Assembly (NCBI GenBank): GCA_965197905.1
Contig: CBDAOB010000005.1
Location: 1,632,001 to 1,696,000 of the forward strand
Source of the DNA: Candidatus Latescibacterota bacterium
GTDB lineage: Bacteria > Latescibacterota > UBA2968 > UBA8231
DNA: 64,000 nucleotides
Direction of reading: 5' to 3'
A program made the position numbers and the translations under genes. Positions 19,581 through 39,637 of this stretch are shown in pieces (the stretch's first letter is position 1; the number at the start of each line of letters is the position of its first letter). Below the pieces are notes generated by a model. The model was not told where the DNA came from. It saw nothing but the letters and a program-made list of their open reading frames with translations, and did no database searches.

Positions 19581-20438
19581 TCAAGCTCCGAGAATCTTGC
19601 CCCGCAAGTGCACCAGCAGCTGGAGAGCCTGCTCGATGTCTGTCTTCTGATCGGCGGAATACTCCCGCTCCACCGTCAACGGTCCATGGTACCCCAGCTC
19701 GTTCAGCTTGTGGAGAAACCGTTCGATGTCCACGTCGCCGCTGCCCAGCGGTGCATCTGCGTGCCATGGTTGTCCCTGCTCGCGGAGCTTCTTTGCGTCC
19801 TTGCAGTGGACGCTTTTCACGTGTCCACCGATCAACTCCAGGGCTTCGAGCGGTTCACCGGAACCGTAAAGGATCATGTTCGCCGGATCGAAGTTCACCG
19901 CCAGGTTCTCTCGTCCGACGGCGTTGATGAACTCGAGCAGCTCGCTGGCCGTTTCCTGGCCAGTCTCCAGGTTGAAGGTCTGACCCATGCTTGCGCAGTG
20001 GTCGCAGATCTCTCGCGCCGCGGCGACGACCGCGGCAAACTCCGGGTCCCGGGTATTTGACGGAACGAACCCAAAGTGCATGCCGATGGCGCCAACGCCG
20101 AGTTCGGCGGCAAAGTCGGCTATTTCCAGGGTCTCCTTCAACCTCGCAGGTCGTCGGCCGCTGGGTACCAGACCGACCGTTTCGATGACGGATTCGACAG
20201 TGCTGTAGTCATCTTCCGGAAAACCGACGAAGACGACAGTGATTTCAATATTTGCCGCAGCAAAATCCCGCTTGATCTCTTGCGTCCGAGATCTGATCCT
20301 TTGATCAGGTTGTGGCGCATGCAGGTGAACGGTGGGCACGCTCAGTGCGTTCACGGCATCCAGATCGGCCCCGAGTCCGGAGCCGATCGATGTAAATATC
20401 CCGGTCGCCCATTTATCCATACGCTCAGTCCCGATCAA
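19581..20438 (-). CDS. Sugar phosphate isomerase/epimerase (xylose isomerase-like TIM barrel)
   Basis: LETGQE, NFDPANMILYG, HCKD, LTVERE. Confidence 0.88.
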   Translation of the reverse strand: MIGTERMDKWATGIFTSIGSGLGADLDAVNALSVPTVHLHAPQPDQRIRSRTQEIKRDFAAANIEITVVFVGFPEDDYSTVESVIETVGLVPSGRRPARLKETLEIADFAAELGVGAIGMHFGFVPSNTRDPEFAAVVAAAREICDHCASMGQTFNLETGQETASELLEFINAVGRENLAVNFDPANMILYGSGEPLEALELIGGHVKSVHCKDAKKLREQGQPWHADAPLGSGDVDIERFLHKLNELGYHGPLTVEREYSADQKTDIEQALQLLVHLRGKILGA

Positions 20439-22215
20439 AACTTTGTACTGTTACTGACTTCCACGGTGTTTCCCCCTTTGTCCTTGGCTCGATAGAGGGT
20501 CAACACGAGGGACTGGTATATGGCATTCGCCAGGTCGACTACCGAACCACCGGTAGTGCGCTCAATGGTTACAACCGCGATGCTCGACACCAAGGGCAAC
20601 TGGGTCTTGTCGATCTGAACGGTTGCCGCAGCCAAACGTCGACGCATATCGGAAGCCCGCTGCCGTGCGACGTTGTTGGTCATCGACCCGATGAGCACAA
20701 AGTTGGCGCCATCTAGCCGGTAAAGCTGCTCTCCGTCACTCAGGAACTTGCGCAACCCTTTGGCGCTCTCCTGCAACATCCGATCACCCATCAGCCAACC
20801 ATGGCCCTGGTTCACTTTGTCCACCTGATCCAGACCGATTGCAATACAACTCATGGGTCCGGAATCCTTCAGCTGTTTTATCGCCTTTGGAAGAATCAGG
20901 TTGAACAGCATCGTCTTGTTCGGCAATCCGGTTAGCATGTCCCGGCCCGCCAACTGGCGCCACTTCTTGTTGTCCTCCTCGACCGACTCCAGACGCCCTT
21001 TCAAGGAAGTCAGTTCGTCCTTGAGCATGTTGACCTGTCGCGTCGCCTGATCCAGGGAGCCGAAAGCCTCCTCGACCGGCTCCTCCTTAGGGCTTTCGGC
21101 GCCGTTACCCGATGGTTTCGGCACCGCCTTTTTGGGTCGCTCCGCGCCTTTGGGCGCTACCCCCTTGCCATTCTGCTTCTTGGAATTCTTGCCTTCCTTC
21201 GCTGCTGCCGCCTTGGCTTTCTTTACCGGCTCCTCTGTTGTTTGGGCGGCCGCAACTTCGGCCTCCGCCCCCCCCCCCGACTCTTGTGAAGCTCGCGAAG
21301 CTCGCGACCCCGCTCACCGGTCTTGTCGAGCATTTCGCGGGCTCGATTGACCGCCCCGCCGACGATGCTCTTGTCGCTGATAATACCCACGCACCGTTCT
21401 ATCACGCCGCTGAAAAAACTTGAGGCTTTCTTGAAATCCTCCGCGCTGTTGGTCAGTTCGTAGAGCCGAAAACCGATCTCGGCCAGGAGCTGCTGGAGTC
21501 GAAGCTCGTCCTCGGTTTTTGCCTCTTTCAGCGTTTCGAAATTGCGCTCAAAGTACGAGCGGGCATAGCGCAGGGCGTCGGCCTCATCGAGGGTGAGCTT
21601 GGGAACGGCCGGGTAGCCCTTGTTCTCGGGAATGGCTTTCTGCCAACGTTTTTTCACCTTCGCGAATCGCGCCGTCGCCGCTTCGAGATCCGCGCCCGGA
21701 TAGAATTTTTCTAGGTCTCGAAAGAGCCACGCGATTCGCAGGTAATAACGTGCCACATTGCCGTGTATAATCCGCTGGCGCAGACACTGGGAGTAGATCC
21801 CCAGGAAGAACTGGGCCATCACCTTAACCAGTGGATCTGCGTCCTCGGTCAGCAATCCGAGGCTATGCGTGATGCCTTTGCCCGTTGCACTCCAGGTGAG
21901 ATGCTGGCGTAGCGCGTCGGCCGCAAAATCGCTGCGGAAGGCGTCAGGATTCTTTGACGCTTGGCGAAAATCGGCATCATCCAACTCGCCGGTGAAGCGG
22001 CATTTCGGGCAGACTCCAAAGAAGAACTGCTTCGGATCTACGGAATCGAATCCCGCCTTTCCCCACTTGAATTCAGTGGGATGTCCATCGCCCTCCGATT
22101 TTTGGGGGCGGACCATGTCACGCTTAAGACGGTAGAACTCCTTCGTTGTGTCGCACAGCGGACACTGAATGTCATACTTGCGACATATCTGCAGCATTTC
22201 TTGGTCAGAGAGCAT
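20435..22215 (-). CDS. DUF2225-like Zn-ribbon/helical domain fused to a degenerate GGDEF domain; frameshift in a G11 tract
   Basis: CPLC/CPKC and YLRIAWLFR in ORF 21223..22215. The frame of ORF 20435..21124 stays open up to the C11 run at 21268-21278 (AEAEVAAAQTTEEPVKKAK linker). GGDEF fold with DGANF. Confidence 0.75.
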
Positions 22216-23539: not shown

Positions 23540-24268
23540 CTAGGCGTCGCCATTCAGGGCCGCTTTCTGTACCGCGATGAGCTGTTCGATTCCCTGTGCC
23601 GCCAGGTCCAACAGGGCGTCCGACTGTTTGCGGCTGAAGGGCCGATCCTCCGCCGTGCCCTGGATTTCGACGAACCCGCCACCCGCCGTCATGACAACGT
23701 TCATGTCGGTTTCCGCCCGTGCATCCTCGGCGTAACAAAGGTCGAGTAGGGCCTCGCCGTCGACGATCCCGACGCTCACCGCCGCAGCCGCTTCGAGCAC
23801 CGGATTTTCACCTAATATTCTATCTCTCAAGAGGTTCCTAACCGCTTCTGAGAGAGCAATATAACCTCCTGTAATACTGGCGGTCCGCGTACCGCCGTCA
23901 GCCTGAATAACATCGCAGTCGACGTGGATGGTACGCTCGCCGATCATTTTCAGGTCGACGATGGAGCGCAGCGATCGCCCGATAAGACGCTGAATCTCTC
24001 GGTTGCGGCTATTCACCCGGCCAGTACTCGACTCGCGGGCAACCCGCTGTGACGAGGATCCAGGAAGCATGCTGTATTCGGCCGTAAGCCAACCCTTGCC
24101 CGAGCCGACCAGAAACGGCGGAACCCGATCTTCGATCACAGCAGTGCACAGTACTCTAGTATCTCCCATCGATATCAGCACCGAGCCGGGGGCGGTTTTC
24201 AGGTAGCCCAAGGCGAAGTCGACGGGTCGCAGCTCGTCGGCCCGGCGATTGTCTACTCGGTGACCCAT
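23540..24268 (-). CDS. rph: Ribonuclease PH
   Basis: GWLTAEYSMLP, EIQRLIGRSLR, DCDVIQADGGTRTASITG. Confidence 0.97.
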   Translation of the reverse strand: MGHRVDNRRADELRPVDFALGYLKTAPGSVLISMGDTRVLCTAVIEDRVPPFLVGSGKGWLTAEYSMLPGSSSQRVARESSTGRVNSRNREIQRLIGRSLRSIVDLKMIGERTIHVDCDVIQADGGTRTASITGGYIALSEAVRNLLRDRILGENPVLEAAAAVSVGIVDGEALLDLCYAEDARAETDMNVVMTAGGGFVEIQGTAEDRPFSRKQSDALLDLAAQGIEQLIAVQKAALNGDA

Positions 24269-25137
24269 CAGTCCGATCTCAGGAACTGGCGGTAATCCGT
24301 GCCGATCATGTCCACCGTATAACACATCTCGGTAAGTCTCGAGAATATGCGGCCGCCGGAGAGCTCGCGTATTTCGTCTAGCGACTGGTTCGTGGTTATC
24401 ATGGTGAAACGCTGCTCGCCATATCGCGCATCGACGAGGTCGTATAACATCTCAGTCTCCCAGTCGGTGCCTCGTTGAACGCCGAAATCATCCAGCACCA
24501 GATAAGGGATCTGGCAGAGCGCATCAACGATCTGCCAGGTCTGACCGTAATGTTCGCTGTCGTGAGAGTAGGTATCGCGCAATTTCTGGAAGTACTTCCG
24601 CGACAGATTCAGAAAACGACCGGCGCGGGCGCGATGCAGAATGAGCTCGTTGAGGATGATGCTTCCTAGAAGGGTCTTCCCAGTGCCCGGGCTTCCGTAT
24701 AGCAGGAATCCCCGCTGGGGTTCCTCGTCGCTGCCAACCACCCACGATACAAGATCCAGCGCTTTTTTGGCTTTCTGTTCCACCGGTATCGGCGTCTGAC
24801 CATCGGGGGCGAAAGCGGAGAAGTCTCGACGGAATTTCCAACGAAAACGCTCGGGAATCTCCGCTTGTTTGAAAAGCTGGCTGACATGTGTGAGCCTGCG
24901 CCGGTATTGCCGACACGGGCATGGCCGGTTCTGCCCTTCTTCGTCCCAGTACCGGAAGGGCGGTGTTCGATCACAGCGACAGGAGTCCAGAATACAGCGG
25001 CACAGCTCCAGAGTTCCGTAGCGACCCACTTCTATATCGGCCTCGTAGCGAATGCCGGCACCACCGCAGACTTCACATGGGGCCCTAGAGGCTGTCGGCG
25101 CTGCGGTTTCGCCTTCTTCGCTGCTGGCAAGACTCAT
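24268..25137 (-). CDS. DnaC/IstB-like AAA+ ATPase with Cys-rich N-terminus
   Basis: CEVC, CRC, CPC; IPERF; GSPGTGKT; LVLDDFG; ITTN; RIFSRL. Confidence 0.87.
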   Translation of the reverse strand: MSLASSEEGETAAPTASRAPCEVCGGAGIRYEADIEVGRYGTLELCRCILDSCRCDRTPPFRYWDEEGQNRPCPCRQYRRRLTHVSQLFKQAEIPERFRWKFRRDFSAFAPDGQTPIPVEQKAKKALDLVSWVVGSDEEPQRGFLLYGSPGTGKTLLGSIILNELILHRARAGRFLNLSRKYFQKLRDTYSHDSEHYGQTWQIVDALCQIPYLVLDDFGVQRGTDWETEMLYDLVDARYGEQRFTMITTNQSLDEIRELSGGRIFSRLTEMCYTVDMIGTDYRQFLRSD

Positions 25138-25601
25138 TGTCGCTCCTTGAATTCCCTCTCTAGGTCGCGCTGTGCGTCGCGGCTGGCTATATCCCTCCGC
25201 TTGTCATACTGACGTTTTCCCCGCGCCAGAGCCAGCTCGACCTTAGCGCGCCCCCTCTTGAAATAGATCTTCAACGGGACGAGGGTAAGACCTCGTTGCT
25301 GGCTGCGTCCCAGCAAGCGTCGTATCTCGCCACGATGCATTAGGAGTTTCCTTCGCCGTTCCGGCTCGTGGTTGAATCTGTTGGCGGGCTCGTACGCGCC
25401 GATGTGGAGGTTGTAGAGAAACAACTCCCCCTGGTCCACGGCGGCAAAGGAGTCTTTCATGTTGGCTTTGCCCGCCCTCAAGGCTTTGACCTCGGTCCCC
25501 ACCAAAACAATGCCAGTTTCGTAGGAATCGAGGATTTCATAGTCGTGTCGAGCCTTGCGGTTCTGAGCGACCAGTTTGGTCCCGTTTGCCGTACTGTTCA
25601 A
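25134..25601 (-). CDS. smpB: SsrA-binding protein
   Basis: NRKARHDY, LVGTEVKALR, RRKLLMH, GKRQYDKR. Confidence 0.97.
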   Translation of the reverse strand: MNSTANGTKLVAQNRKARHDYEILDSYETGIVLVGTEVKALRAGKANMKDSFAAVDQGELFLYNLHIGAYEPANRFNHEPERRRKLLMHRGEIRRLLGRSQQRGLTLVPLKIYFKRGRAKVELALARGKRQYDKRRDIASRDAQRDLEREFKERQ

Positions 25602-25903: not shown

Positions 25904-27781
25904 CTACGCGGCTCTCCAGACGCCATCCTTGCCCTTTTCGACGATCCGCTTCGCCCCGCGTTTCATCTGTGGCACAAGCTCTCCGGTATCTGGATCGCGC
26001 TGGCAGACCACGTGCCGGGTAGGATCCTCTTGATCGGGCATGATCTTGTACGGGATGCGCCGCTGATTGCCCGCCACCCGCATCTCTACGCGTCCGATAA
26101 CCACCCCCAGTTGTTTTTCATCCTCGCTGAGCTCGAGATCATCCTCCGCGGCGGTGCCGGATGAGGCAGGCTTAGACTTCTCGGCTTCTTCGGCTTTCTT
26201 CCGCTGCTCTTCTACAGCCTCCTGGCGCTCATTGAGAATCTTCTGCTCAATCTCATCGATCATCTGGGCACCGCGCAGCTTGATTTCGGCCCCTTCGTCG
26301 GTAGACATATCGGGAAACAGCCGCCGCACGCGAACATTGAGAAAATTCTCGGCTTGATGTCTTGCCTCTTTGAGATCGGATGTCGAGCGGAAGAATTCTT
26401 CCAGGCTGTGAGCTATACGGAGCATGCGAAGCTCTTTGCGAAACCACGTTCGTTTGGTCACGTGATCGATCAGATTGATCAGACAAACCGTGTCTGCCGC
26501 GGGCCGCACCCTGACCACCGCATCGGCGGAGTTGAGCCGATCGGAGATGTCGTCCAGGGTAGACATGCGGAGATCGGAGAAAAAGTCCTCCTCGATGGTC
26601 AAATTGGAGATCCGCTCCATGCCTCGCCCCGCCACACTGTTGTACGGTGGCAACCGAACCGACACCATGCGCAGCTCGTGGTCCTTCCGCTCCATAACAT
26701 CGATCAAACCCTCAAGAAGAGCAGAGTCATCCATCAACTCTTGCAGCGTGGGGACGGGGTTGACGCCGGCTCCATCGTTCGACACAACCACCTGCTTGTG
26801 ACGAATCAGAAACTTCAGTGCCGGATCTGCCTGTTCGCCTATCCTGCGCATCGCTTCGAACACCTCCAGGTACCTTACCGAGTGTTCTACGACGGCCTTC
26901 ACTTTTTTGTCCAGTTCGTCCCGGGACGCGCCCGCCAACAAACTGTTGCGAATCCGACTTGCCTCGGTCTCGTCGATCTCGCCTTTTTTTAATCGACGTT
27001 CGACGTCGCTCAAGCCTTTTACCTTCTCGGCTTCCTCCTCGGTCAGGTCTCCGCGTTCAACATATGAAGCGACGTTCTGCGGCACCTTTTCCGTTTCCTG
27101 CTTTACCAGCTCGGATCTGCGCTTTTGCTGTTGTTTGGCACGTTGCTGCGCCTCCTGCTGACTCACTTCCCCCGAGGCGACTGCTTCCTCGACGGCAGAA
27201 TCCGCCTCCCCTGACCCGGGAGAAGTGTCCGCAACATCTGGACCCATAATCCCCCTGAGCTGAGCCTTGAAAGCTTCGAGCTGGGCATCTGTTGCAGCCT
27301 GGGCCGGCGCCGAGTCCTGATTCCCCTCAAGCTTCACCAATACATCTTTCACGCAGTTGTAGAAATCGATTTTCCTGGGATCGATATTCGCGTCCGCCAG
27401 CAAGTCGAGAATCCCTTCAAGCTTGCTGAATCTGCGGACGGTGTTGGCACCCTGCGACTGAATCTTGGTGACATCCCATTTAAGTTTCCGCACACCCTCA
27501 TCGAAAGCGCGGCTGACCGCGTTCCGAACGCCCCTGGCGACATACGTCTCCAGATGCCTTTTGTTCACTTCGGTGACCATATGGCGAATCTTCGTCTTCG
27601 CGGAAGCCGAGGCCTCAACTCCGGTAAGCTCCTCGAAATCAGACTCGAGAGCGTCTTGAAAGTGCTGGTTCACGATCAACACCTCACCCTTCTCCAATCG
27701 CGAAAGCACTCGAGTCCAGAGCGCGGTACACAATTCCTTCGGCAAGTTGCCCTCAGGTTTTTGTTGATCGATTGAGCTCAA
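25904..27781 (-). CDS. Hypothetical ~625-aa protein, paralog A of 34872..36782
   Basis: Long ORF, colinear along its full length with the 34872..36782 protein; start placed by alignment. Confidence 0.85.
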   Translation of the reverse strand: MSSIDQQKPEGNLPKELCTALWTRVLSRLEKGEVLIVNQHFQDALESDFEELTGVEASASAKTKIRHMVTEVNKRHLETYVARGVRNAVSRAFDEGVRKLKWDVTKIQSQGANTVRRFSKLEGILDLLADANIDPRKIDFYNCVKDVLVKLEGNQDSAPAQAATDAQLEAFKAQLRGIMGPDVADTSPGSGEADSAVEEAVASGEVSQQEAQQRAKQQQKRRSELVKQETEKVPQNVASYVERGDLTEEEAEKVKGLSDVERRLKKGEIDETEASRIRNSLLAGASRDELDKKVKAVVEHSVRYLEVFEAMRRIGEQADPALKFLIRHKQVVVSNDGAGVNPVPTLQELMDDSALLEGLIDVMERKDHELRMVSVRLPPYNSVAGRGMERISNLTIEEDFFSDLRMSTLDDISDRLNSADAVVRVRPAADTVCLINLIDHVTKRTWFRKELRMLRIAHSLEEFFRSTSDLKEARHQAENFLNVRVRRLFPDMSTDEGAEIKLRGAQMIDEIEQKILNERQEAVEEQRKKAEEAEKSKPASSGTAAEDDLELSEDEKQLGVVIGRVEMRVAGNQRRIPYKIMPDQEDPTRHVVCQRDPDTGELVPQMKRGAKRIVEKGKDGVWRAA

Positions 27782-28015
27782 CTCGCCTCTTAAAGCCCAG
27801 CACCCCACCCTCGGGCGCTGCGGCTGGAATCGTCCGACAAGACATAACAGGTAATATATTATGGATCTTGCATGCTCGAAAGTCAAGCAGAACTAGGCTG
27901 TTTGGCTGCTCCAAGCGGTCAATTTCGCTGATGAGCCGAGATCTACTTACCGGCGCTAGTCGATTGCGTACTATCGAGGAACCACGGAGTGTACACACCG
28001 AAAAAGGGGGCAATT

Positions 28016-28396
28016 ATGACTATCTTTCTTCACACCCGGATCAGGGTGAGCGATTTGGACCGGTCGATCGACTGGTACACCGAACATTTGGGATTTCAGC
28101 TGCAGCGAAGATCCGATAAGTCGCCTGCCGGAAATCACATTGCCATGCTGCAGCTTCCGGATAACGACCACCTCCTGGAGCTCACCTGGTCCGCTGATTA
28201 CCAGTTGGAGGTGCCCGAGGACTTGATGCACCTGGCGATAGGCGTCGAGGATCTGCTAGGTTGCTGCGCGCGCTTGGAAGGGGCGGGCATCGAAATCTGG
28301 CCCGACGGGTGGAGGCAGAAACTGGTTGACAGCAAAATGGCGTTTATCGACGACCCGGATGGTTACGAGATCGAGCTACTCGAGCGATCCGTCTGA
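28016..28396 (+). CDS. VOC/glyoxalase (lactoylglutathione lyase-like) protein
   Basis: FLHTRIRVSDL, LELT, HLAIGV, FIDDPDGYEIELL. Confidence 0.92.
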   Translation: MTIFLHTRIRVSDLDRSIDWYTEHLGFQLQRRSDKSPAGNHIAMLQLPDNDHLLELTWSADYQLEVPEDLMHLAIGVEDLLGCCARLEGAGIEIWPDGWRQKLVDSKMAFIDDPDGYEIELLERSV

Positions 28397-28573
28397 TAGT
28401 GTTGTTTCCCATCCTACCCCTACCTGCTTATTTTTCAATCACTTAACGACGTCATCCTGGTCACCGCAAGAAATTGCTATCAATTCCTGTAGATTTCGAT
28501 GGCGTCGCCGATATAATTAGTATCACATAGTATCATGAATGCGCCTACAATTTAGACAAGGAGGTCTTTATTT

Positions 28574-28828
28574 ATGGCAGCAAGAAAGCCAAAGCTCATC
28601 GGTATTGAGGAAGCCGCCCACTTGTTCGGCAAGTCGATTCACCAGATGCGTCAATATAAGTCTAAGGGACTTTTGAAGGTCGCGGATTGCGTCGGCAACA
28701 AAGATCTGTTCGATATGGCGGAAGTCATTCTGTTGAAAAACCTGATTCACGAGTTGCGGGTAACGGAAGGGCTATCACTCGCCCAGATTTCCCGCAGACT
28801 CGACCAGATGATGGGACGTGCGGCATAA
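28574..28828 (+). CDS. MerR-like helix-turn-helix protein
   Basis: IGIEEAAHLFGKSIHQMRQYKSKGLL...GLSLAQI pattern; AGGAGG RBS. Confidence 0.8.
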   Translation: MAARKPKLIGIEEAAHLFGKSIHQMRQYKSKGLLKVADCVGNKDLFDMAEVILLKNLIHELRVTEGLSLAQISRRLDQMMGRAA

Positions 28829-28971
28829 CGGCAACGAAGTTGAATTAGCAGGGCGGGCAGGCTTTTCCAGAAGAGGGTGCGAGAAGGTATCCCTACTCGC
28901 GGTACAGGGAAGTACGACCTTTTCCAGGGAGAAGTCCGCCGCCCTGTCTATTTCGTTTCAATCCCTCAAAC

Positions 28972-29330
28972 TCACTTGCTCCCCTTCGTGCGATCGCACG
29001 CTTCATTGATTATTCCGAGAATCGCCTCCAGGACCGCTCCTACCCAGGCCGGCAACTGCTCGACTCGATCGGGATGAAAGACAGCCGCAAACCTGCGTCG
29101 CACCTGGCTGAGTTCCTGCTCACTCACGGGGCCATCGATGCCGAGGATCTGACCGGGCGTATAGTTGCGAATAGCCCCCAGATCGAAACTCTGTGTAGTG
29201 CTTGCCGAGCGTTCCGCGGCAGTAGCTCTCGCCGCCATGCTGCGCAAGCGCTGATCTAATTTCAGATACTCGCTTTTCAGGCGTTCGAAATCTCTTCCCC
29301 CCTCAGTAGTCTGGCGCTCCAATTTTATCC
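28972..29330 (-). pseudogene. 3' half of an IS-interrupted coiled-coil/J-domain gene
   Basis: ILGI...ELSQVRRRFAAVFHPDRV...INEACD J-domain pattern; begins directly at the left IS end. Confidence 0.75.
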
Positions 29331-29359
29331 CGCAATTAGCATTTTTGGCCTTGACAATC
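29331..29359 (+). repeat. Left terminal inverted repeat
   Basis: CGCAATTAGCATTTTTGGCCTTGACAATC, exact reverse complement of 32725-32753. Confidence 0.93.
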
Positions 29360-29388
29360 CCGCATTTGCTACCCTACCTTTGCCCTAT

Positions 29389-29524
29389 TCTACAATCACG
29401 CGGTGGACTCTTTTTAGTCGGGTTCTCCGCTGAATACAACAGCCCTGCAAGACGGGCCAGGGTAGCTCCTTGGCCCGAGGGTGAATAGGTGGAAACTTCC
29501 CGCATTTCATTGCGTGATTGTAGA
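29389..29524 (+). ncRNA. Putative rod-shaped structured RNA or 5' leader inside the IS
   Basis: 19-bp closing helix (29389-29407 with 29506-29524), nested helices, 10-bp apical stem; lies downstream of TTGACA-N18-TACCTT. Confidence 0.4.
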
Positions 29525-29586
29525 GACGGCCCGGCATTTTTTGCCGGGGGCAATCTCTCACTCCATCCAAAGGACGGTGTGCAATC

Positions 29587-31185
29587 ATGCGCCCCATCAT
29601 CATTTTGTTCTGTGCCACCATTGGCGGACTACTCGCCTGTGCCTCGGATAAAACCCGCGCTGTAAACAGCGAGCCGATATTTCCGTACATCGAGACAGAG
29701 AACAGCCAAACCTCACCCGAGCTGCAAAATTGGCTTGATCGCCAAGCGGAACCCCTCGGCTTGGCGCCGCGGGCAAAGATTGTTGTCGATGCGGGGCTCA
29801 ATCCAATCCCTTCCAATTCGTATTTCAGTGCGCTGGAAACCTGGAGCGATACCGCGCATATAGCCTATATAAATCCCAACTTGCCATTGGAGGGCGGATT
29901 GCGTTTCGTCGCCAATCCAAGCGGAAGTGACAAAATCGTAGAACTGGCTTGGAGCCCTAAATCAGGCGTTGCGCCCAATTGGTGTCCGGCGGAGGGGAAT
30001 GACACCAAAAACCAGATTATCGGCGGGCCTATTTACGTCCAGGCGTGCGGCTCAGGCCGCGCAAAAATAGATGTGTATAGCCTGAATGACATCCTGATCG
30101 ACTCCTTTGTCTTCAATTTGGGGGATGTCGCCTTGGCGCAGATAGGAGGAGAGGATGGGATCAGCCATTGCGACGTGTTCTACAAGGCGGTTGACTCCAA
30201 AATCTACCGGATAAACATGAACCCCGACATACATTACGCTTCCGGCAAGCACTGGGAAACTATTTTTTCAGGAGCAAGCAGTTACGGAGAAATTACGGGC
30301 TTGGCGGTGGACATTCCGGGGGGGAAATTATACTGGATAAGGGGAAGCCGGGGAACTTTGCACCGAGCCGGTCTCGATGGGGCCAACCCGGAGACCGTTG
30401 CTGAAATTGAAGGGATGAGCTCCACTTACCAAAAGGGATTCACGCTTTCCGGGGACTTTTTTTATTGGGGTGAGCAAGAGCCCGACCGCGACGAAGGTGG
30501 CGGCAGCTACCCTTGGCGCATTCAACGCCTCTCGAAAGATGGACAACAACTGACAACCGTAGTTGCAGACATTGGATCCATGCGCCGGATTTTCATCGAT
30601 GCGGATGCGGAGAAAGCATATTGGGTCGATTCGCGGGGCACACCGTATGGCGGAACCGACGGGGAAGATGACGAGGAAGACGAGGGCGGAGCAGTACTCG
30701 AGGATGGGGTTCAGCCGGATGGAAGCTATTTTTATGCCAATGGAAATTTGATCTATCGGTTCCACTTCCATGAGGCAAGGTTGGATGGCTCGGAACGGCG
30801 GGTATTAGGTGAATTCTCTTGGCATGACGCCCGTTATCTTTCCGGGCTCGCCGTTGATTCCAAGGCGGGGAAAGTGTATTGGCAAAGCGCTAAACAAGAA
30901 GAGGGGGTATGGACCGAGAAATTGCTGCGACGCGCCAACCTGGACTTGACCGACGTTGAAGTGCTTCACGATGATGTCAACGCCGGCGGCAACTGGCCCG
31001 ACCGGATAAGCAGCATTGGAAACACCGTCTTCCTGGATGTGCCCAACGAAACGATTTACTTCGCGCCCGGTGGGAATTATCTGCATCAAACCAATCTTGA
31101 CGGATCGCTGCCCACCGAGAGGCTGCCGACAGAAGTGATTAGCCAAATTGGCAGAGCACACGCGATTTCCTTCTGCTCTGGGTAG
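29587..31185 (+). CDS. Lipoprotein with YWTD/LDL-receptor class B-like beta-propeller repeats
   Basis: Lipobox LLAC; repeats GLAVDIPGGKLYW..LHRAGLDG, IFIDADAEKAYWVD, GLAVDSKAGKVYW..LRRANLD. Confidence 0.8.
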   Translation: MRPIIILFCATIGGLLACASDKTRAVNSEPIFPYIETENSQTSPELQNWLDRQAEPLGLAPRAKIVVDAGLNPIPSNSYFSALETWSDTAHIAYINPNLPLEGGLRFVANPSGSDKIVELAWSPKSGVAPNWCPAEGNDTKNQIIGGPIYVQACGSGRAKIDVYSLNDILIDSFVFNLGDVALAQIGGEDGISHCDVFYKAVDSKIYRINMNPDIHYASGKHWETIFSGASSYGEITGLAVDIPGGKLYWIRGSRGTLHRAGLDGANPETVAEIEGMSSTYQKGFTLSGDFFYWGEQEPDRDEGGGSYPWRIQRLSKDGQQLTTVVADIGSMRRIFIDADAEKAYWVDSRGTPYGGTDGEDDEEDEGGAVLEDGVQPDGSYFYANGNLIYRFHFHEARLDGSERRVLGEFSWHDARYLSGLAVDSKAGKVYWQSAKQEEGVWTEKLLRRANLDLTDVEVLHDDVNAGGNWPDRISSIGNTVFLDVPNETIYFAPGGNYLHQTNLDGSLPTERLPTEVISQIGRAHAISFCSG

Positions 31186-31514
31186 ATTTCACGGAGGGAC
31201 GCAATTGGATTGACAAACAAGGGCACGAGCATACCTTACTGAAGTAGTATTCTCATCGTGCAGCCTGACAGCTCTCCACAATGCCGGGTTGATAAATGCG
31301 TACAAATACCGGTGCCTGCTTTCTCTGGCTGTCCATGATTTTACTCCTGGAATAGCGTGAATTGGACGGATAAACGTCCGTCCTCGCTTCGGACGATCCG
31401 ATAGATTGACTAGGTTGGAACTGTTTTCAAATAATCCTTGACTTTTTATGATGGCAGACTTTACGTTTGGGCCGGCTTTTTTGTAATGGCGGATTTCATA
31501 TTTAGGGGTGAGTT

Positions 31515-31778
31515 ATGCCCGATCAAAAAGAGGACGCAATGAATAACGGATCTGTGCAAAAGCTGGCCGAGGCCCTATCCGAGGTGATCCATCATGAGCA
31601 TGAGCATCCGCATCCGGAATTGATCATACATATTGACGGCAAATTCAAGGCCGTCATGGGCGAAATTCACGGCCTGAAGCAGGATATGACTGTCGAAATT
31701 GACGGCCTGAAGCAGGATATGACTATCGTGAAAAATCATATCCTGAACGGCGGGAGCGATCCTACACCAGCAGGATAA
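31515..31778 (+). CDS. Small His-rich protein with an 11-aa tandem repeat
   Basis: HHEHEHPHP; EIHGLKQDMTV/EIDGLKQDMTI. Confidence 0.6.
   Translation: MPDQKEDAMNNGSVQKLAEALSEVIHHEHEHPHPELIIHIDGKFKAVMGEIHGLKQDMTVEIDGLKQDMTIVKNHILNGGSDPTPAG
31662..31727 (+). repeat. 33-bp tandem repeat, two copies
   Basis: GAAATT(C/G)ACGGCCTGAAGCAGGATATGACT(G/A)TC. Confidence 0.9.
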
Positions 31779-31793
31779 ATTTGCCGCTACCGC

Positions 31794-32666
31794 CTATGCA
31801 AAACACCCGCTGATAAAAGAACCGAAGGCGTTGTCGTCCTTCCTGTGGTTGTACTTGAAACAAGCCTCGGCCACGTAAAGCGGCGTGTAGTGATGATGCG
31901 ATCCGTACCAGGCGCGCTTGAGCAGGGACCACACGCCTTCGATCGTGTTCGTGTGAATCTCGCCATCGACGTAATGCGTGGAATGCTGAATCACGCAGTG
32001 ATCCATGATCCGCCGCACCGCGTTGTAGGCCCCGTTCTCGTCCGTGACCAGCGTCGCCGCTTCGGGGTCGATGGCGCGTTTGATAAAGGAAAGCACGCCC
32101 TTAGCGGAGAGATCGTCGGCGACTTCGGCCACAACCTTTCCTGAACGCTCCACAGCGCCGATTACAGCGGTCTTGCGCGTTCCCCGTCCTCTGTGGGGGT
32201 TGGGCTTATCGTCGTCGCGCCTGTTGGGCTTCCTGGGCCGCCCGCCGACAAACGTTTCGTCGGCTTCGATCAAGCCGCTTAACCTGATTCTTCCCTGCTT
32301 GGTAGCCATTTCAGCCCGGATGCGCTGTTGCATGTACCAGGCGGACCGCTGATTCAGGTTTAAGTCACGCCCGAGCTGGCAACTGGACAGGCTTTTCTTG
32401 GCGTTCACGATCAAGGCGATCGCACAAAACCACTTCTGCAAGGGAAGATGCGTCCCCTGAAACATCGTCTTGGACAAAACGTTGAAACTGGTTCCGCAGG
32501 CGTGGCAGTTCCAGCGCCCGATTCTATTCCCTTGCTTCTTGCGGGCGCATTCCCCGACCGTGCCACACAAGGGACAAAAGGGCTCATCGCCGAAGCGTAT
32601 CCGCTCCAAATGAGCAATGCAGGATTCCTGCGTCGGAAATCTTTCTGTCACGGTTATCAAGTTCAT
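31794..32666 (-). CDS. IS1595-family transposase
   Basis: CPLC/CHAC zinc ribbon, IEADETFVGG, LVTDE, HTNTIEGVWSLLKR. Confidence 0.95.
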   Translation of the reverse strand: MNLITVTERFPTQESCIAHLERIRFGDEPFCPLCGTVGECARKKQGNRIGRWNCHACGTSFNVLSKTMFQGTHLPLQKWFCAIALIVNAKKSLSSCQLGRDLNLNQRSAWYMQQRIRAEMATKQGRIRLSGLIEADETFVGGRPRKPNRRDDDKPNPHRGRGTRKTAVIGAVERSGKVVAEVADDLSAKGVLSFIKRAIDPEAATLVTDENGAYNAVRRIMDHCVIQHSTHYVDGEIHTNTIEGVWSLLKRAWYGSHHHYTPLYVAEACFKYNHRKDDNAFGSFISGCFA

Positions 32667-32724
32667 GCTCCACGCCCCCTTATTTGTTTGTTTTTACTAT
32701 ACTTAAGATACCAAATAAAGGGCT

Positions 32725-32753
32725 GATTGTCAAGGCCAAAAATGCTAATTGCG
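32725..32753 (-). repeat. Right terminal inverted repeat
   Basis: GATTGTCAAGGCCAAAAATGCTAATTGCG on the + strand. Confidence 0.93.
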
Positions 32754-33397
32754 ATTTTTTTTAGTCGCTGATGAGCTCGGTGCCCACGATCTTCCGCGAA
32801 CTCGAGATCCTGTTCCATGCGGGCTAACTCAGCCGTCTTGGCCTCGATCTCTTCTCGATATCGGTCAACTCCGTTCGCCCCTGTCTCCCCATCCCCTGCG
32901 ACATAGATCGCACCCGAATGGTTTACAGCTTCCAAACACCGCAAGAAAATCGCGGATTGCTCGGCATCTGCGCTGCCTGCTCCAAGTGCTGAGGCCGAGT
33001 CCTGTATCCAGCTCCAATGCTTTCGGTATCTCTCTGCGAAGAGCTGCGCGAATGCCGCGCGCCGCTGCCAGCTCTGGTTACAATCCAGGATCATGAAGTA
33101 CAACACCGCTTTATCGAGCGGTCCCCCAATAGTGACCACCTCGGGTACGGCGTTTTGAAGATCGCCCCAATGGAGCCCAATGCTGTCGCAGGCGCCGACC
33201 TCGAAGGCGAGGGCTTTCTCTTTGAGGCCATACACCTTGCCGTCGTCGAGCAGGATCTTGCCGAGCCACTGGCGAAACTCCGTTAACCCTTCGCCGCTCT
33301 TGATGCGTTTGTCGTGGTCCAGATTTCGCCGGACGCTGCGAAGACTCTGGCTCTCCACCAACTCGCGGAACCTAGGTATCTCTTCCGCGGAGATCAC
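32754..33397 (-). pseudogene. 5' half of the IS-interrupted coiled-coil/J-domain gene
   Basis: GTG start overlaps the ATPase stop (GTGA); the coiled coil (REEIEAKTAELARMEQDL...QRLKK) runs into the right IS end. Confidence 0.75.
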
Positions 33398-34857
33398 TCT
33401 GCCGACTCCTTTTCGGATGGAGATCGCAACCGTGCATAATCCGGCAGGTGCGCGGCGACAAAATCTCGTGCGGTGCGTCCGCCGACCAGGTCGTGACCGT
33501 GACGCATGCGCCAAACATTGAATTCCATCAGCAGCTGCTCGGAATCGGTATCGATGCCAGCCCGTCTAGCGTAGGACATTACCAGATGCTCGTATTGCGA
33601 TTTGCTCGGAAAATCGATGAACACCTTCAGGGCGAAGCGGTCATCGAGCGCCCGAAGCTCGTCGTACCGCTCCGCCTGCTGCGCATCGAAAGACGACGGC
33701 CTGATGCCGGTGTCGCGGGGTACGGCGTCCGTTGGGGAAGGATCCATCTGCATGCGCCCCAACCCCGCCATATGCTCCCCCTCGCGATCCACCAGATCCT
33801 TGAAGTTTGACGTGGCGTAAAACACGAGGTTGTCGGGCACCTGCTCCAGAGATCCCTCGAGCACGCTCGACAGGTAGCGAATCGAGGCATCCCCTTTGTT
33901 GAGCGAGATATTGTCCAATACGCCAACGAATTTCTCGGGTCGGCCGCGCACCAACGACAGCAACTCCGGTAGCGCCGAATAGTTCTCCGGGGCGACCTCG
34001 ATCCCACGCAAACCCGCGGTGTAGTATTTGCATATGAGAGCCCGGATCAGCGAAGACTTACCGCAACCGCGGGGACCCCAGATAAGGGTATTTCCGGCTC
34101 TGTGGCCCTCGACGAGGTTGCGGGTGTTGCGGTCGATCAGCTCTATTCGCTGGCGATTTCCTTCCAACCAATCCAATGGGAACACCGCGAAATCGGCAAC
34201 AGGGTCCAATGCGGCGCGCCCACCGCTTTTCCGCAGCACGAAAGCTGGCGCCCCCCGGAAGATACCCCGCCCGTTTTCCCGGACATGGTCCGCCAATGGC
34301 CGCACCATCGACGACCAGTCAGCTGCATGGAGAAATTTCATTGTCAAGGAATCAAGCCTTGGGCGGTAGTCCCATGGCTCGGCCGATGATTCGCTTCCAG
34401 TGCAAGCGACGGCTACCGCTTCCGATCCAAGCCAGTCGCTGTAGTTCGTGGCGGCAAGCCCCTGTAACACCTGGAGGTCCGCAACCATAAGCTTGGTCAG
34501 GCTGGAGTGAATTCGTTCGCTGGAGGTAAGCTCCGCCGCTTTGAGAAACGGGTGATCGTCCTCGATGATACGGCGGATGAAACGGGCGGCCACAGACTCT
34601 TCCAGGGCACCAGAGGTTGTGGAGCTTTCCGTCGCGACCCACTGCTGCAGCTGTCGCAGCAACTGCTCAGCCTTCTGCTGCAGACGGACCTCTTCTCTTC
34701 CGTCCGCTCGGCGGCGAAACAGCTCCCCGAGGCTGTCCAAGAAGCGTCGGAAAAGATCTCCAAACTCGCCGTCGAGAACACCGCACCACGTGGACAACTC
34801 AGCGATAGACTGGCGCAGCCGTCGAACTTCGATCAAACATTCCAGATCGCTGGCCAC
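33394..34857 (-). CDS. DUF815-like AAA+ ATP-binding protein
   Basis: NTLIWGPRGCGKSS Walker A, SSVLEGSLEQVPDNLVFYATSN, ALDDRFAL, GRTARDF. Confidence 0.85.
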   Translation of the reverse strand: MASDLECLIEVRRLRQSIAELSTWCGVLDGEFGDLFRRFLDSLGELFRRRADGREEVRLQQKAEQLLRQLQQWVATESSTTSGALEESVAARFIRRIIEDDHPFLKAAELTSSERIHSSLTKLMVADLQVLQGLAATNYSDWLGSEAVAVACTGSESSAEPWDYRPRLDSLTMKFLHAADWSSMVRPLADHVRENGRGIFRGAPAFVLRKSGGRAALDPVADFAVFPLDWLEGNRQRIELIDRNTRNLVEGHRAGNTLIWGPRGCGKSSLIRALICKYYTAGLRGIEVAPENYSALPELLSLVRGRPEKFVGVLDNISLNKGDASIRYLSSVLEGSLEQVPDNLVFYATSNFKDLVDREGEHMAGLGRMQMDPSPTDAVPRDTGIRPSSFDAQQAERYDELRALDDRFALKVFIDFPSKSQYEHLVMSYARRAGIDTDSEQLLMEFNVWRMRHGHDLVGGRTARDFVAAHLPDYARLRSPSEKESAE

Positions 34858-34871
34858 CTTCGGCCGGATTC

Positions 34872-36782
34872 CTATATCGACTTCCAGACGCCGTCTTTGC
34901 CCCTTTCGACCACGCGCTTCGCGCCCCGTCTCAATTCTGGCATCAACTCGCCCGTGTCGCGATCGCGCTTGACGATGATGTGTCGTGAACCATCCTCCGG
35001 GTCCGGCATGATCTTGTACGGAATGCGCCGCTGGTTGCCGGCGATACGTACCTCGACGCGTCCGATTTGGACGCCGAGGGTCTTCTCATCGTCGCTCAAC
35101 TCCATATCATCCTCGGCGCCCCCACCTTTGGTCGATTTGGTATCCCACTCCTCCGCTGTGGCGCCTTCTTCTCCCTCCTCCTCCTTGGGCCCTTCGCGCT
35201 CGGCCAACACCTTCTTCTCAATGCTCGATATAATGCTTTCCTTGCGCTCACTGATTTCCGATTCCTCGTCGGTGGAGAGATCTGGAAACATTCTGCGCAT
35301 ACGCCGCTCGATGAAATTCTCCGCCTGTTTTCGCGCCTCGGCCACATCGGTTGCGGAACGGAAGAACTCCTCGATAGTCTGCGCGATCTTCATCATGCGC
35401 AATTCCTTGCGAAACCTCGTGCGTTTGACGACGTGGTCTATGAGACTGACGAAACAACGAATGTCGGCTGCGGGGCGAATCCTGGTTATTGGATCGCTCG
35501 AGTTGAGTCGATCGGACATCCCCTCCAGACTCAGGTCGCGCAGATCGTCGATGAATTCCTGTTCGATGATCATGTTGCCAATCTTCTCGAGACCCCGCTT
35601 CATGACGTGGCTGTACGGAGGAAAGCGGACCGAAAGCATGCGGATCTCCTGGTCGGTCCGGGCGCTGACGTCGCAGACCTTCGTGAGCAGGCTATCCCCG
35701 CCGTCGGGTGCCGGCCCCATCAACTCCTCGATCGCCGGACCCATGTCAATTTGAGCATCGAAGCTGGTGGTCACTCGGTGTTTGTGCCGGATAAGAAACT
35801 CCAACGCCAGATCGTAGTCGGTGCTGATCTTTTTCATCGAATCGAACACCTCCAGGTAGGCGACAGCACTGTCAATCGCCTCCTTTACCTTCTTGTCCAG
35901 CTGGTCTCGAAGCTCGCGTTCCAGGATACTGTTGCGCACACGATCAGCTTCCGCCTCGTCGATTTCGCCCCTCTTCAGCCGCTCATCCACTTCGCGGAGA
36001 GCCTTCACCTTCTCGGCTTCGTCAGAAGTGAGCGTACCCTGCTGCACGTAGGCTTCGAGATTCTGCGGTAGCTTCGCCTTTTCGCTTTCCTCGATCTCAG
36101 AACGCACGCGCTCTTGTTGCTGCAAGCGGCGCCCGGCCTCCTGGCGATCTATTTCCCCTTCGGCTATAAGGTCCTTCGCCTCGGGGCTGCTCTCGACCAT
36201 GGCCTCGCCCGGGTCGGGTTCTGGTTCTGGTACGGGTTCGGGCTCCGGCGGTGGAGACGCTTCGAGATCGGGCAGTTCGAAAGTCGGCTTGGGTCGCTGT
36301 TGTGCCGCCAGCTCCCCTCGCCGGTTCTCACTCGATACCACGGCGCCTTTGATCAGGTCCATGGTGTTGTTGGTGTCTAAGTTGACATTGATGTCGTCCA
36401 GCAGATCACGCATGCCCTCGGTTCGACTGAAGCGTCGCAGAGATTTGACCCCGGTTTCCTGAATTCGGGCGGTGTCCCATTTAAGCTGCGAAACGCCTTT
36501 TTCGAACGCATTCTTGACGCAGTTTTGCACCCCTTGAGCCATATAGGTTTGGGGGAACCGCTCGTTGACGTAGTCCACCATGTGGCGGATAGACCGTCTG
36601 TCGCTCTCGCTCGGCGCTCTACCGGTAACCGCGGTGTACTCGCTTTCGAGCGCTTCCTGGAAACGGTCGTTGGTAATCAGGATCTCACCCGATTCGAGAC
36701 GCAGCAGAACGCGAGCCCAGATTTCGGCGCTCACTTCGCTGGGAAGCCCGTCGAAACCAACGGATGGAGGGTGTTCGGACAT
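34872..36782 (-). CDS. Hypothetical 636-aa protein, paralog B of 25904..27781
   Basis: Long ORF with full-length similarity to paralog A; sits between cysS and the ATPase. Confidence 0.87.
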   Translation of the reverse strand: MSEHPPSVGFDGLPSEVSAEIWARVLLRLESGEILITNDRFQEALESEYTAVTGRAPSESDRRSIRHMVDYVNERFPQTYMAQGVQNCVKNAFEKGVSQLKWDTARIQETGVKSLRRFSRTEGMRDLLDDINVNLDTNNTMDLIKGAVVSSENRRGELAAQQRPKPTFELPDLEASPPPEPEPVPEPEPDPGEAMVESSPEAKDLIAEGEIDRQEAGRRLQQQERVRSEIEESEKAKLPQNLEAYVQQGTLTSDEAEKVKALREVDERLKRGEIDEAEADRVRNSILERELRDQLDKKVKEAIDSAVAYLEVFDSMKKISTDYDLALEFLIRHKHRVTTSFDAQIDMGPAIEELMGPAPDGGDSLLTKVCDVSARTDQEIRMLSVRFPPYSHVMKRGLEKIGNMIIEQEFIDDLRDLSLEGMSDRLNSSDPITRIRPAADIRCFVSLIDHVVKRTRFRKELRMMKIAQTIEEFFRSATDVAEARKQAENFIERRMRRMFPDLSTDEESEISERKESIISSIEKKVLAEREGPKEEEGEEGATAEEWDTKSTKGGGAEDDMELSDDEKTLGVQIGRVEVRIAGNQRRIPYKIMPDPEDGSRHIIVKRDRDTGELMPELRRGAKRVVERGKDGVWKSI

Positions 36783-36808: not shown

Positions 36809-38251
36809 TCATGTTTGAAAGGCGCTCTCCGGGTCTGAAATCGGGGTTTTCCACGCCCACGTCGTACCTACGGGCGCGTCGCGAAGCTCGATGCCGGCCC
36901 GCGCCAGTTGGTCCCGCAACTCGTCGGAGCGCGACCAGTCTTTACGAGCCCGGGCATCGGCGCGCTGTTCCAGGAGTTCGGCCAAATGCGCGGGCAATTC
37001 GTCCGCCCCCGGGACCTCCTCGTCTAGTTCGTAGAAAATGCCCAGGACATCATTGATCTCATCCAAGTACCCCAATACGGCTTTTGCACCCAAAGTGGAA
37101 ATCGACCGCTCGCTCAACGATTTCTCGGCAGCATTGACCAGCCCGAACACCGATGCCAGCGCTCGCGGAGTATTGAGATCGTCGTCCATGTGGCGCACGA
37201 ACTCCTCTCTTGCCGCGGTTACTTCAGGCTCGAACGTATTACCTGTCTCGCCCTCGCCCACATTGGCCAGCCGCGTTCTCAGATTGGTCAATCGCCGATG
37301 GGCACTGGCACTGGCATTCAGTGCCTCAAGAGTAAAGTTCATCCGGGTGCCGTAGTGGTTGCTTATGAGCAAATAGCGGTACGCCTTGACGCGGTCCGCT
37401 CCATCGGCGATGTCCTGCAGACGATAGAAGTTACCCAGGCTCTTGGACATCTTTTTGTGATCTACCGTGAGAAACTCGTTGTGAAGCCAATAGCTTGCCA
37501 GAGGTTTTCCGGTGGCCCCTTCGCTCTGAGCGATCTCGTTTTGGTGGTGGGGAAAGATCAGATCTATACCACCGGTATGTATGTCGAAGCTTTCGCCCAA
37601 GTATTTCATCGACATGCAGGAACATTCGAGATGCCAGCCTGGCCGGCCTCTTCCAAACGGTGATTCCCACGCAACGCTGCCGTCCTCGTCCACCCAGGCT
37701 TTCCACAAGACGAAATCTCGCGCATTGTCTTTGTCATACTCGTCGCTGTCCACCCTTGCCCCCTGGCGCAACCCGGACAAATCCAAACGGGCGAATTTTC
37801 CGTAGTCGGGAAACGCGCCGATGCGGAAGTAGACCGAGCCGTTGCTCTCGTAGGCCAACCCCTTCGCTGTCAACGCCTGGATCAGCTGGATCATCTCCTG
37901 GACATGGTCGGTGGCCCGGGGATAAACGTCGGCAGGCACGACGTTCAACCGCTTGACATCCTCGAAGAAGAGCTCGGTATATTTGCCTGTGAGATCCCCG
38001 ATCGACTTGCCTTCGGCCCTGACTCGGGCGATGATCCTATCCTCGACGTCTGTAATATTCATTACGTGGTACACGCCAAAACCACGATACCTCAGATATC
38101 GCTTTAGTAGATCGGCCATGACGAACTGTCGGAAGTTGCCGATGTGCGCGTAGTCGTAAACAGTGGGTCCGCAGCTGTAGATTCGGACCCTGTCTGGATC
38201 CGCTGGCTCGAACGGCTCCAGAGCCCGTGTCGCGGTGTTGTAAAATCGCAT
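36809..38251 (-). CDS. cysS: Cysteine--tRNA ligase
   Basis: CGPTVY, HIGN, DFVLWK, GRPGWHLEC, FPHHQNE, KMSKS. Confidence 0.97.
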   Translation of the reverse strand: MRFYNTATRALEPFEPADPDRVRIYSCGPTVYDYAHIGNFRQFVMADLLKRYLRYRGFGVYHVMNITDVEDRIIARVRAEGKSIGDLTGKYTELFFEDVKRLNVVPADVYPRATDHVQEMIQLIQALTAKGLAYESNGSVYFRIGAFPDYGKFARLDLSGLRQGARVDSDEYDKDNARDFVLWKAWVDEDGSVAWESPFGRGRPGWHLECSCMSMKYLGESFDIHTGGIDLIFPHHQNEIAQSEGATGKPLASYWLHNEFLTVDHKKMSKSLGNFYRLQDIADGADRVKAYRYLLISNHYGTRMNFTLEALNASASAHRRLTNLRTRLANVGEGETGNTFEPEVTAAREEFVRHMDDDLNTPRALASVFGLVNAAEKSLSERSISTLGAKAVLGYLDEINDVLGIFYELDEEVPGADELPAHLAELLEQRADARARKDWSRSDELRDQLARAGIELRDAPVGTTWAWKTPISDPESAFQT

Positions 38252-38416
38252 GCCTATTGGCGTATTGTCCTTGCGGGACAGGAAGTTAGACGAGTTTATG
38301 GTAAACTAGGACGGACGCTACTACATGTCAAGCACCCGTCTGCTTGTGACCCGATGATATATGCATTTAATTAGCGCTTTCACGATGTGCACCAACGAAT
38401 CGGAAGGATCGACAGC

Positions 38417-39637
38417 GTGAACAAGATTGCTTTGCACTGGCAGATTTTGGTGGCGGTGGTGGTTGGCGCACTCGCGGGTGGTGTCATCGGCGACACGGTG
38501 CTACACGTCGAGTTCCTGGGAACATTGTTTCTCAAAGCGCTGCGTATGATCATCGTACCGCTCATCGCCACGTCGATCATCACCGGTGTTGCAGGGTTGG
38601 GCGGGGCCGCGGGCTTCGGTCGAATGGGGATCAGGACCCTCCTCTAGTACACGGCGACCAGCCTGTTAGCCATTCTGACAGGATTGCTCCTGGTAAACCT
38701 CCTGAAACCGGGAGTCGGGGTGAATCTGGGATTGGCCCAGGCTCCTGAGAAACTAGCGGAGTCGATGGAGCAGTTCGGAGATTCCCCTTTCGATGCGGTG
38801 GTCCGGCTTCTCCTCGATATAGTTCCAGCCAACCCGTTCGAATCGATGGCGGAGGGCAAGATCCTGCAGATCATCTTCTTCTGCCTCCTCTTCGGCTATT
38901 TCATCACGCGCCTGCCCAAAACGCCTAGGGAGACCTTGACACACTTCTTCGAATCCTGCTTCGAAGTGATGATGCAAGTAACCAACCTCATCATACGTTT
39001 TGCGCCTATCGGAATCTTCGCCTTAGTGAGCAAGACCGTCGCAACCACGGGGTTCGAAGCGCTGGGTGGATTGGGTATCTACGTAATCACCGTATTCGTT
39101 GGCCTCGCCATTCACGCCGTCTTCACGCTGCCGGCTGTCTTGCTGATTGCGGGGAAAGGGAGTCCTCGGCGCCACGCCCAAGCGATGGCACCGGCGCTGT
39201 TGACTGCATTCTCCACAAGTTCGTCCTCTGCGACGTTGCCTTTGACCATGGAGTCGCTCGAGAAAAGAGCCGGTGTGTCCAATCGCACGACCAGCTTCGT
39301 GGCACCTCTGGGTGCTACCGTGAACATGGACGGTACGGCCCTCTACGAGTGCGTGGCGGCTATGTTCATTGCCCAGGCCTACGGCGTTGAGCTCGGCTTC
39401 GCGCAACAGCTGTTGGTGGTGGTAACCGCCCTGCTCGCTTCCATCGGGGCAGCCGGGATACCAATGGCGGGCCTCGTAATGATATCGGTGATTCTTACGG
39501 CGGTGGGATTACCTCTGGAGGGCGTCGGATTGATTCTTGCGGTCGACCGCGTGCTCGACATGTGCCGCACGACCGTGAACGTTTGGAGTGATTCGTGTGG
39601 CGCGGCGGTAGTTGAGCGCCAAATCGGCCCCGCCTGA
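38417..39637 (+). pseudogene. Dicarboxylate/amino acid:cation symporter (DAACS) with an in-frame TAG at 38645-38647
   Basis: FLKALRMIIVPL before the stop; same frame continues to AFSTSSSSATLP, NMDGTALY, AVDRVLDMCRT. Confidence 0.85.

Follow-up and report, generated by a model that had tools for sequence, protein, structure and literature searches.

An undescribed family of paralogous proteins in one Latescibacterota family that may belong to its flagellar gene set

Closest described systems

Lineage-specific accessory and polar scaffold proteins of the flagellum are known, of the HubP, TipF/TipN and FlgX type, and they are the described proteins closest to the family presented here. Two of its members are the paralogous genes A and B on a 64,000-nucleotide (nt) stretch of a Candidatus Latescibacterota genome (assembly GCA_965197905.1, contig CBDAOB010000005.1, positions 1,632,001 to 1,696,000), which we call the window. 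Like those proteins, the A/B family is not required for the core flagellum of other clades, is limited to a single lineage, has a modular build with acidic linkers, and is lost along with motility. It differs from them in that no sequence or fold match to any of them was found; moreover, it is predicted to be soluble, occurs as five or more dispersed paralogs per genome and is never found in a flagellar operon.

The middle part of the A/B proteins carries three G-x-[IL]-x3-E-A helical hairpins, as in SHOCT and SHOCT-like domains (PF09851, PF08044, PF10925), but here the hairpins are internal and not C-terminal. The locus also encodes an AAA+ ATPase, a member of the DUF815 family (PF05673) that is set apart by additional sequence at the N-terminus and by a Walker B motif reading DN. 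A small MerR-like gene beside a J-like gene recalls the CbpA-CbpM and DnaJ-HspR systems, in which CbpM and HspR are encoded next to J-protein genes according to PMC4063869; here the MerR-like and J-like genes have exactly the same distribution (16 of the 25 family genomes tested). In contrast to those systems, our MerR-like gene is convergent and not co-operonic and has a sigma-28 promoter, the HPD motif is often HSD, and the J-like domain forms the C-terminus of a protein that starts with an unknown helical domain followed by a coiled coil.

The A/B family and its subfamilies

The two paralogs occupy the following positions:

25904..27781, minus strand, paralog A, 625 amino acids (aa), subfamily 1, a genus-level duplicate of B
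34872..36782, minus strand, paralog B, 636 aa, in the ancestral subfamily-1 position behind cysS
27858..27886, minus strand, sigma-70-like promoter of A (TTGACT-17-CATAAT), a consensus match only, also present in G002

The source genome of the window is designated G000 and other G-numbers are related Latescibacterota genomes, while g stands for genus and f for family. A and B are colinear paralogs, in agreement with an earlier sequence-only reading of this DNA, and are identical at 306 of 624 residues (49%). That reading had called the C-terminal domain near-identical; it is 71% identical, though still the best-conserved portion of the protein. It had recognised no family, and neither protein reaches the cut-off in Pfam, NCBIfam, PHROGs or PADLOC. 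The idea of a two-member module, on the other hand, has to be given up: G000 holds three further paralogs elsewhere, five in total, and genus g1 is the only one in which the second (A/B) copy was seen, apart from a remnant in G001. Both genes are under purifying selection in comparison with G002 (ratio of nonsynonymous to synonymous substitution rates, dN/dS, of 0.095 for A and 0.14 for B).

Among the 77 homologs from a word-based search, those with a name are from Latescibacterota or from metagenome-assembled genomes labelled Gemmatimonadetes; an exhaustive profile search gave 305 matches. For distribution, 168 genomes of the phylum were searched, 76 of which make up one Latescibacterota family (37 flagellin-positive, 39 flagellin-negative). 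The paralog family is present in 34 of these 76; in the remainder of the phylum set there were just three marginal matches (E 1.6e-5 to 6e-4, over short stretches), which we took as noise. No description of the family, or of the flagellar expansion reported below, was found in the literature, supplements and subscription papers being outside the scope of that search. We regard an undescribed family confined to one Latescibacterota family as real.

In a FastTree tree of 42 members, each subfamily has fixed neighbours. Subfamily 1, which takes in A and B, lies behind cysS, while A itself is outside the operon, beyond the glyoxalase gene and with its own sigma-70-like site. Subfamily 2 is divergent from the groES-groEL operon in most of its loci, and beside the subfamily-2/groESL locus there is an orphan fliN in 13/13 of the loci listed. 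Another subfamily adjoins a long coiled-coil gene; yet another lacks the C domain and is found near hemA/ccsA.

The A/B family co-occurs with flagellar genes and is lost with them

Orphan fliG and fliN genes stand near paralog loci, and therefore the distribution of the family was compared with that of flagellar genes. Four further genes of the window enter this comparison:

32754..33397, minus strand, 5' fragment of the J-like gene (helical domain and start of the coiled coil)
28972..29330, minus strand, 3' fragment of the J-like gene (end of the coiled coil and J-like domain, with HPD)
28574..28828, plus strand, MerR-like helix-turn-helix protein of 84 aa (PF13411, E 1.4e-5), convergent on the J-like gene
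20435..22215, minus strand, gene for a DUF2225 and a degenerate GGDEF domain, one open reading frame (ORF) of ~590-620 aa in most relatives, here split at a G run
33394..34857, minus strand, DUF815 AAA+ ATPase, Walker A intact, kept independently of the paralog family

The paralog family was found in 34 of the 37 flagellin-positive genomes and in none of the 39 flagellin-negative ones. The J-like gene and the DUF2225-GGDEF gene show the same pattern (each 29/37 versus 0/39), whereas the DUF815 ATPase does not follow it, being present in 26/37 and 35/39, respectively. With FlhA as the marker, 28 of the 34 family-positive genomes are positive, and all six exceptions, including G136, carry flagellin. 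At the flagellin-negative loci that were fetched, the ATPase abuts the glyoxalase gene in 30/30, with no match to the paralog, J or MerR genes; the neighbours on either side of the ATPase have thus been deleted, while the ATPase itself remains. The flagellin-negative genomes are not reduced (median 5.9 versus 5.1 Mb) and many of them are closed.

On the ATPase tree, the negative genomes form four separate groups. This tree comprises 56 genomes from a quick search; it leaves out five of the 61 ATPase-positive genomes as well as 15 genomes without an ATPase match. The paralog family tracks flagellin in about 3/3 well-supported independent pairs, nearly all pairings agreeing, and genus g9 provides a contrast within a genus (G023 positive, G010 negative). 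Thus, the family co-occurs and is co-lost with flagellar genes.

Chemoreceptors were tried as a specific correlate and rejected, intact paralogs being accompanied by methyl-accepting chemotaxis proteins in 5/8 genomes. A type IV pilus control was uninformative, as no PilM above the cut-off was found in five genomes.

Duplication and decay of flagellar genes

The flagellar genes of this lineage are strikingly duplicated in the switch and the filament. G000 has eight FliG_C, five FliM-like, four FliN-like and 10 flagellin-domain matches. Its FliG_C matches are scattered beside housekeeping genes (e.g., C5:1998384, C3:590138, C3:761587, C5:314336, C3:987809), five of them full-length and ~81% identical to one query. 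Relatives have up to 19 FliG_C matches, family f3 also has them, and there are ~10 flagellin domains per genome.

Decay is seen as well. G159 retains fragments only, of both the paralog family and flagellin. In G002, the block from fliR to flgB (basal body, hook, stator) was lost by a deletion linked to an insertion sequence (IS) at L151:6900-10200; this closed genome keeps 10 flagellin-domain and 12 FliG_C matches along with flhA, flhF and fliA, and its subfamily-2 paralog is in pieces.

Two peculiarities of hook genes were observed. In G000, flgE is interrupted by a group II intron (L163:2199-2338; C5 ~2488118-2488874) whose ~750 nt leave no room for a complete maturase gene; it may or may not splice out, and hook synthesis would depend on splicing. 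In G001, a genome without the paralog family, flgD and flgE form one 865-aa ORF (L154:13587-16184).

The MerR-like gene has a sigma-28-type promoter

One further feature lies upstream of the MerR-like gene:

28488..28514, plus strand, sigma-28-type promoter of the MerR-like gene, with the -10 box GCCGATAT intact and the -35 box degenerate in this genus

Orthologs of the MerR-like protein are 86-96% identical. The strict sigma-28 pattern T[AC]AAG-N13-16-[CT]CGAT[AC] was found upstream of 15 of the 20 MerR orthologs and of none of the 219 genes at these loci that served as controls, and the flagellins of G000 are preceded by the same motif. The motif (TAAA-N13-16-GCCGATA type) fits the SigD consensus as quoted in PMC3865298. 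By its conserved promoter pattern, the MerR-like gene would belong to the sigma-28 (FliA/SigD) regulon. The protein resembles HspR weakly (E 1.5e-4, 21.7 bits against a cut-off of 105); since this score is under the HspR cut-off and the gene is convergent, not co-operonic, with the J-like gene, we do not place it in the HspR/CbpM group.

Four more copies of the 84-aa gene are present in G000 (C5:299129, C5:303352, C3:258285, C4:396827), each with a sigma-28-like -10 box; three of them have a common upstream sequence with a hairpin, which suggests recent duplication. A fifth MerR-like match is the N-terminus of a ~250-aa ORF. The leader ACAAGGAGGT (window 28555-28570) is common to the MerR-like gene and several flagellins, and we take it to resemble a CsrA site over the ribosome-binding site.

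A proposed flagellar role and its strongest rival

On balance, we favour as moderately probable the reading that the A/B family is part of the flagellar (motility) gene set of its lineage, together with the J-like, MerR-like and DUF2225-GGDEF genes, the ATPase being independent. The data establish the distribution, the deletions on both sides of a retained ATPase, the sigma-28 site of the MerR-like gene and the modular architecture. Four gene families without annotation, from a phylum that is uncultured, would thereby be linked to a biological process, with repeated natural losses serving as knock-outs.

A number of observations weigh against this reading. The losses amount to only 3-5 independent events, the sign test gives p = 0.25, and Fisher values calculated across related genomes overstate the association. 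Three flagellin-positive genomes (G001, G119, G120) are without the paralog family, and several of the 34 positives contain remnants only (G009, G016, G018, G159, G163). Since 32 FlhA-positive genomes of other families are without it, the paralog family is not needed for a flagellum. None of the paralogs was found within an operon of flagellar genes, and G002 has lost its basal body but retains A and B in intact form. The sigma-28 pattern was fixed after the sequences had been viewed; it is missed in its strict form by the MerR promoter of G000 itself, due to the degenerate -35 box, and it occurs upstream of 0/50 paralogs. Finally, the dicarboxylate symporter of the same region is gone from all 30 flagellin-negative loci, and therefore non-flagellar genes can show the same pattern.

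The loss of this syntenic symporter in the same genomes also fits a different account, which we consider somewhat unlikely: the family might serve a free-living or dispersal stage (signalling, polarity, differentiation) and be lost with flagella for ecological reasons, with no flagellar role. However, five flagellated g12 genomes lack the symporter at this locus as well, and it has homologs elsewhere in 3/4 of the negatives. The flagellin-negative genomes tested have lost CheW (0/3) and the majority of GGDEF genes, as such a shift of lifestyle would have it. Chemoreceptors are absent in 7/7 genomes with degraded paralogs, but intact paralogs occur without chemoreceptors in 3/8 genomes. The position of all paralogs outside flagellar operons and without a sigma-28 site suits this account too, whereas their MerR-like neighbour is tied directly to sigma-28.

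Predicted structure and possible function of the A/B proteins

The AlphaFold2 model of a paralog has a mean predicted local distance difference test score (pLDDT) of 87 and a predicted template modelling score of 0.57, with disordered linkers. The chain begins with a helical domain, followed by an acidic linker that is disordered; three SHOCT-like hairpins then run into a helical core, and after a three-helix bundle another linker leads to the final beta domain. Modelled alone, the C-terminal beta domain reached a pLDDT of 92, and its net charge is +5/+6. No membrane segment is predicted in the paralogs. Several relatives have in-frame internal deletions that keep just the N and C domains.

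Structure comparison, as proposed in the sequence-only reading, covered the full model and the C domain folded alone, and neither gave a match above background (Foldseek best E 0.6 for the full model). The best VIA-align hit of the full model was a generic three-helix bundle (Z 7.6, root-mean-square deviation (rmsd) 3.2, 74 aligned), and that of the C domain against solved folds had Z 4.0, rmsd 3.0 and 63 aligned. Neither PDB sequences (one match at E 0.04, a ribosomal protein) nor the ESM Atlas contained a usable match. Fusions of the C domain to a known domain were absent among 45 longer proteins, which is a weak test. The paralog and J-like profiles are unrelated, and when a subfamily-1 paralog of G021 was co-folded with the J-like protein of that genome, the score was 0.00, a result that counts neither way.

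The A/B proteins are multi-domain, predicted to be soluble and probably non-enzymatic. That they are cytoplasmic adaptors or scaffolds is a tentative proposal. In such a scheme, the helical domain at the N-terminus and the basic beta domain at the C-terminus, carried by acidic flexible linkers, would tether partners, and the helical core with its SHOCT-like hairpins would hold them together. The A/B proteins might in this way organise or regulate (through assembly, placement or control) an unusually duplicated flagellar apparatus. Two points speak against the scaffold part: the SHOCT-like matches are weak (1-4 of 55 members, best E 0.001-0.02), and PMC3581485 reports that no oligomerisation of SHOCT was found.

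With regard to expression, A and B would probably be transcribed early, before the sigma-28 tier, from sigma-70-type or housekeeping promoters. The MerR-like protein could be a late, sigma-28-driven regulator, and it is plausible, by analogy, that it acts on the J-like domain as CbpM does on CbpA. The MerR-like, J-like and DUF2225-GGDEF proteins would then be regulators of the same flagellar system, and the ATPase would have its own role. The most specific form of the flagellar reading is, in our estimate, unlikely as it stands: a cytoplasmic scaffold of new fold, whose paralogs organise flagella with many-copy switch and filament under a private circuit of a sigma-28-driven MerR-like protein, the J-like protein and a DUF2225-GGDEF receptor. 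If true, flagellar motors would here be built, or selected among, in a manner not described before; the scaffold alone, if confirmed, would bring into flagellar biology a protein whose fold is apparently new.

The DUF815 ATPase is kept independently of the paralog family

The sequence-only reading had proposed an assembly system assisted by a chaperone or ATPase, with the A/B pair as its client or scaffold. In specific terms, the pair would be assembled or remodelled by the DUF815 ATPase and by the J protein acting with DnaK. The gene order behind this proposal was correct: cysS, 26 nt, B, 14 nt, the ATPase, a GTGA overlap and the J gene, with the MerR-like gene convergent. This order is old, being present in six genera, and the tight operon kept there is in favour of the proposal. 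The flanking genes are as follows:

36809..38251, minus strand, cysS, housekeeping head of the operon
28016..28396, plus strand, glyoxalase-family gene, a bystander kept in non-flagellated genomes

The ATPase belongs firmly to DUF815 (PF05673, E 1.5e-50, 172 bits against a cut-off of 23.8), and its Walker B is DN in 55 of 56 orthologs. It is kept in 61 of the 76 genomes beside the glyoxalase gene, including 35 of the 39 flagellin-negative ones, in which there is no trace of the paralog family; altogether, it occurs without the family in 37 genomes, and the family occurs without a detected ATPase in 10. At 28 flagellin-positive loci, a paralog or its fragment precedes the ATPase or J gene in 15 and is absent in 13, and the A/B pair was seen in one genus only. 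In the reading favoured here, the ATPase is a conserved neighbour, a bystander that does not depend on the paralog, J, MerR or DUF2225 genes. Because it sits in the middle of the operon and is independent of its neighbours, even a tight old operon can mislead. The linkage in gene neighbourhoods that the sequence-only reading wished to see checked is thus partly there: the paralog, J-like and MerR-like genes share their fate, but the ATPase does not follow. The factor common to these three genes is the flagellar gene set.

The J-like domain is real (many solved J domains matched by profile, best E 0.0014; Pfam DnaJ score of 12.8 bits, under the cut-off), and together with the weak HspR likeness of the MerR-like protein it suits a chaperone function. 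However, HPD is the invariant motif of J-domain co-chaperones, and it is kept in 7/17 orthologs and replaced by HSD in 10/17. The window copy has HPD but is broken. The J gene had been rightly placed in the operon, while its interruption by an IS had been missed. In G002, an IS1380-type element interrupts it at a different position; hence, J was disrupted independently in both genomes with an intact A/B pair. These breaks are recent, because the J halves still have dN/dS of 0.2 and 0.1. Taken together, we judge assembly of the pair by the ATPase and J protein very improbable.

The element in the window has the following parts:

29331..32753, no strand assigned, IS1595-type element of 3,423 nt that splits the J gene
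31794-32666, minus strand, its ISXO2-like transposase (DDE, zinc ribbon)
29587-31185, plus strand, passenger ORF of 532 aa, lipoprotein-like
31515-31778, plus strand, passenger ORF of 87 aa

The ISXO2-like transposase and the terminal inverted repeats (perfect over 29 nt, 29331-29359 and 32725-32753) place it in the IS1595 family. It has no clean target duplication but an adjacent deletion in its place, ~29 codons of the J gene being gone at the junction. Contigs of two public runs (X1, X3), one of which may be the source of the assembly, span the IS junctions, and none of the contigs listed joins across the IS. Both passenger ORFs are single-copy in G000 and have no Pfam or PHROG match.

Chaperonin neighbourhood and other observations

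Least probable of all is that the family is a partner of GroESL/DnaK within a heat-shock regulon under sigma-54. The divergent position of subfamily 2 next to groES-groEL could suggest this, as could the shared intergenic region, in which groES has a sigma-54 site and three palindromes lie upstream. However, that sigma-54 site faces groES and not the paralog, the other subfamilies lie beside cysS, hemA/ccsA or a coiled-coil gene, and the whole family is absent from 39 genomes while chaperonins are expected to be essential. What appears to be such a regulon exists in G000, where groES, dnaK and a probable small heat-shock gene (C5:1309312, C5:2264444, C4:1287561) have sigma-54 sites and an upstream palindrome like TTCYCA-N3-TGRSAA.

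PilZ and MshEN cyclic di-GMP motifs were compared by eye and rejected. An identity of DUF2225 with SmiA was unsupported: none of the papers listed contained DUF2225, and PMC9204741 does not contain 'DUF'. Single frameshifts at 21223-21240 (the G run), 38387-38684 and 7880-8632, and also in flhA, motA and two paralogs of G000, are probably assembly errors. The run of smpB, a DnaC/IstB-like ATPase, rph and an RpoD-like sigma factor at 24268-25601 is conserved in flagellated and non-flagellated relatives.

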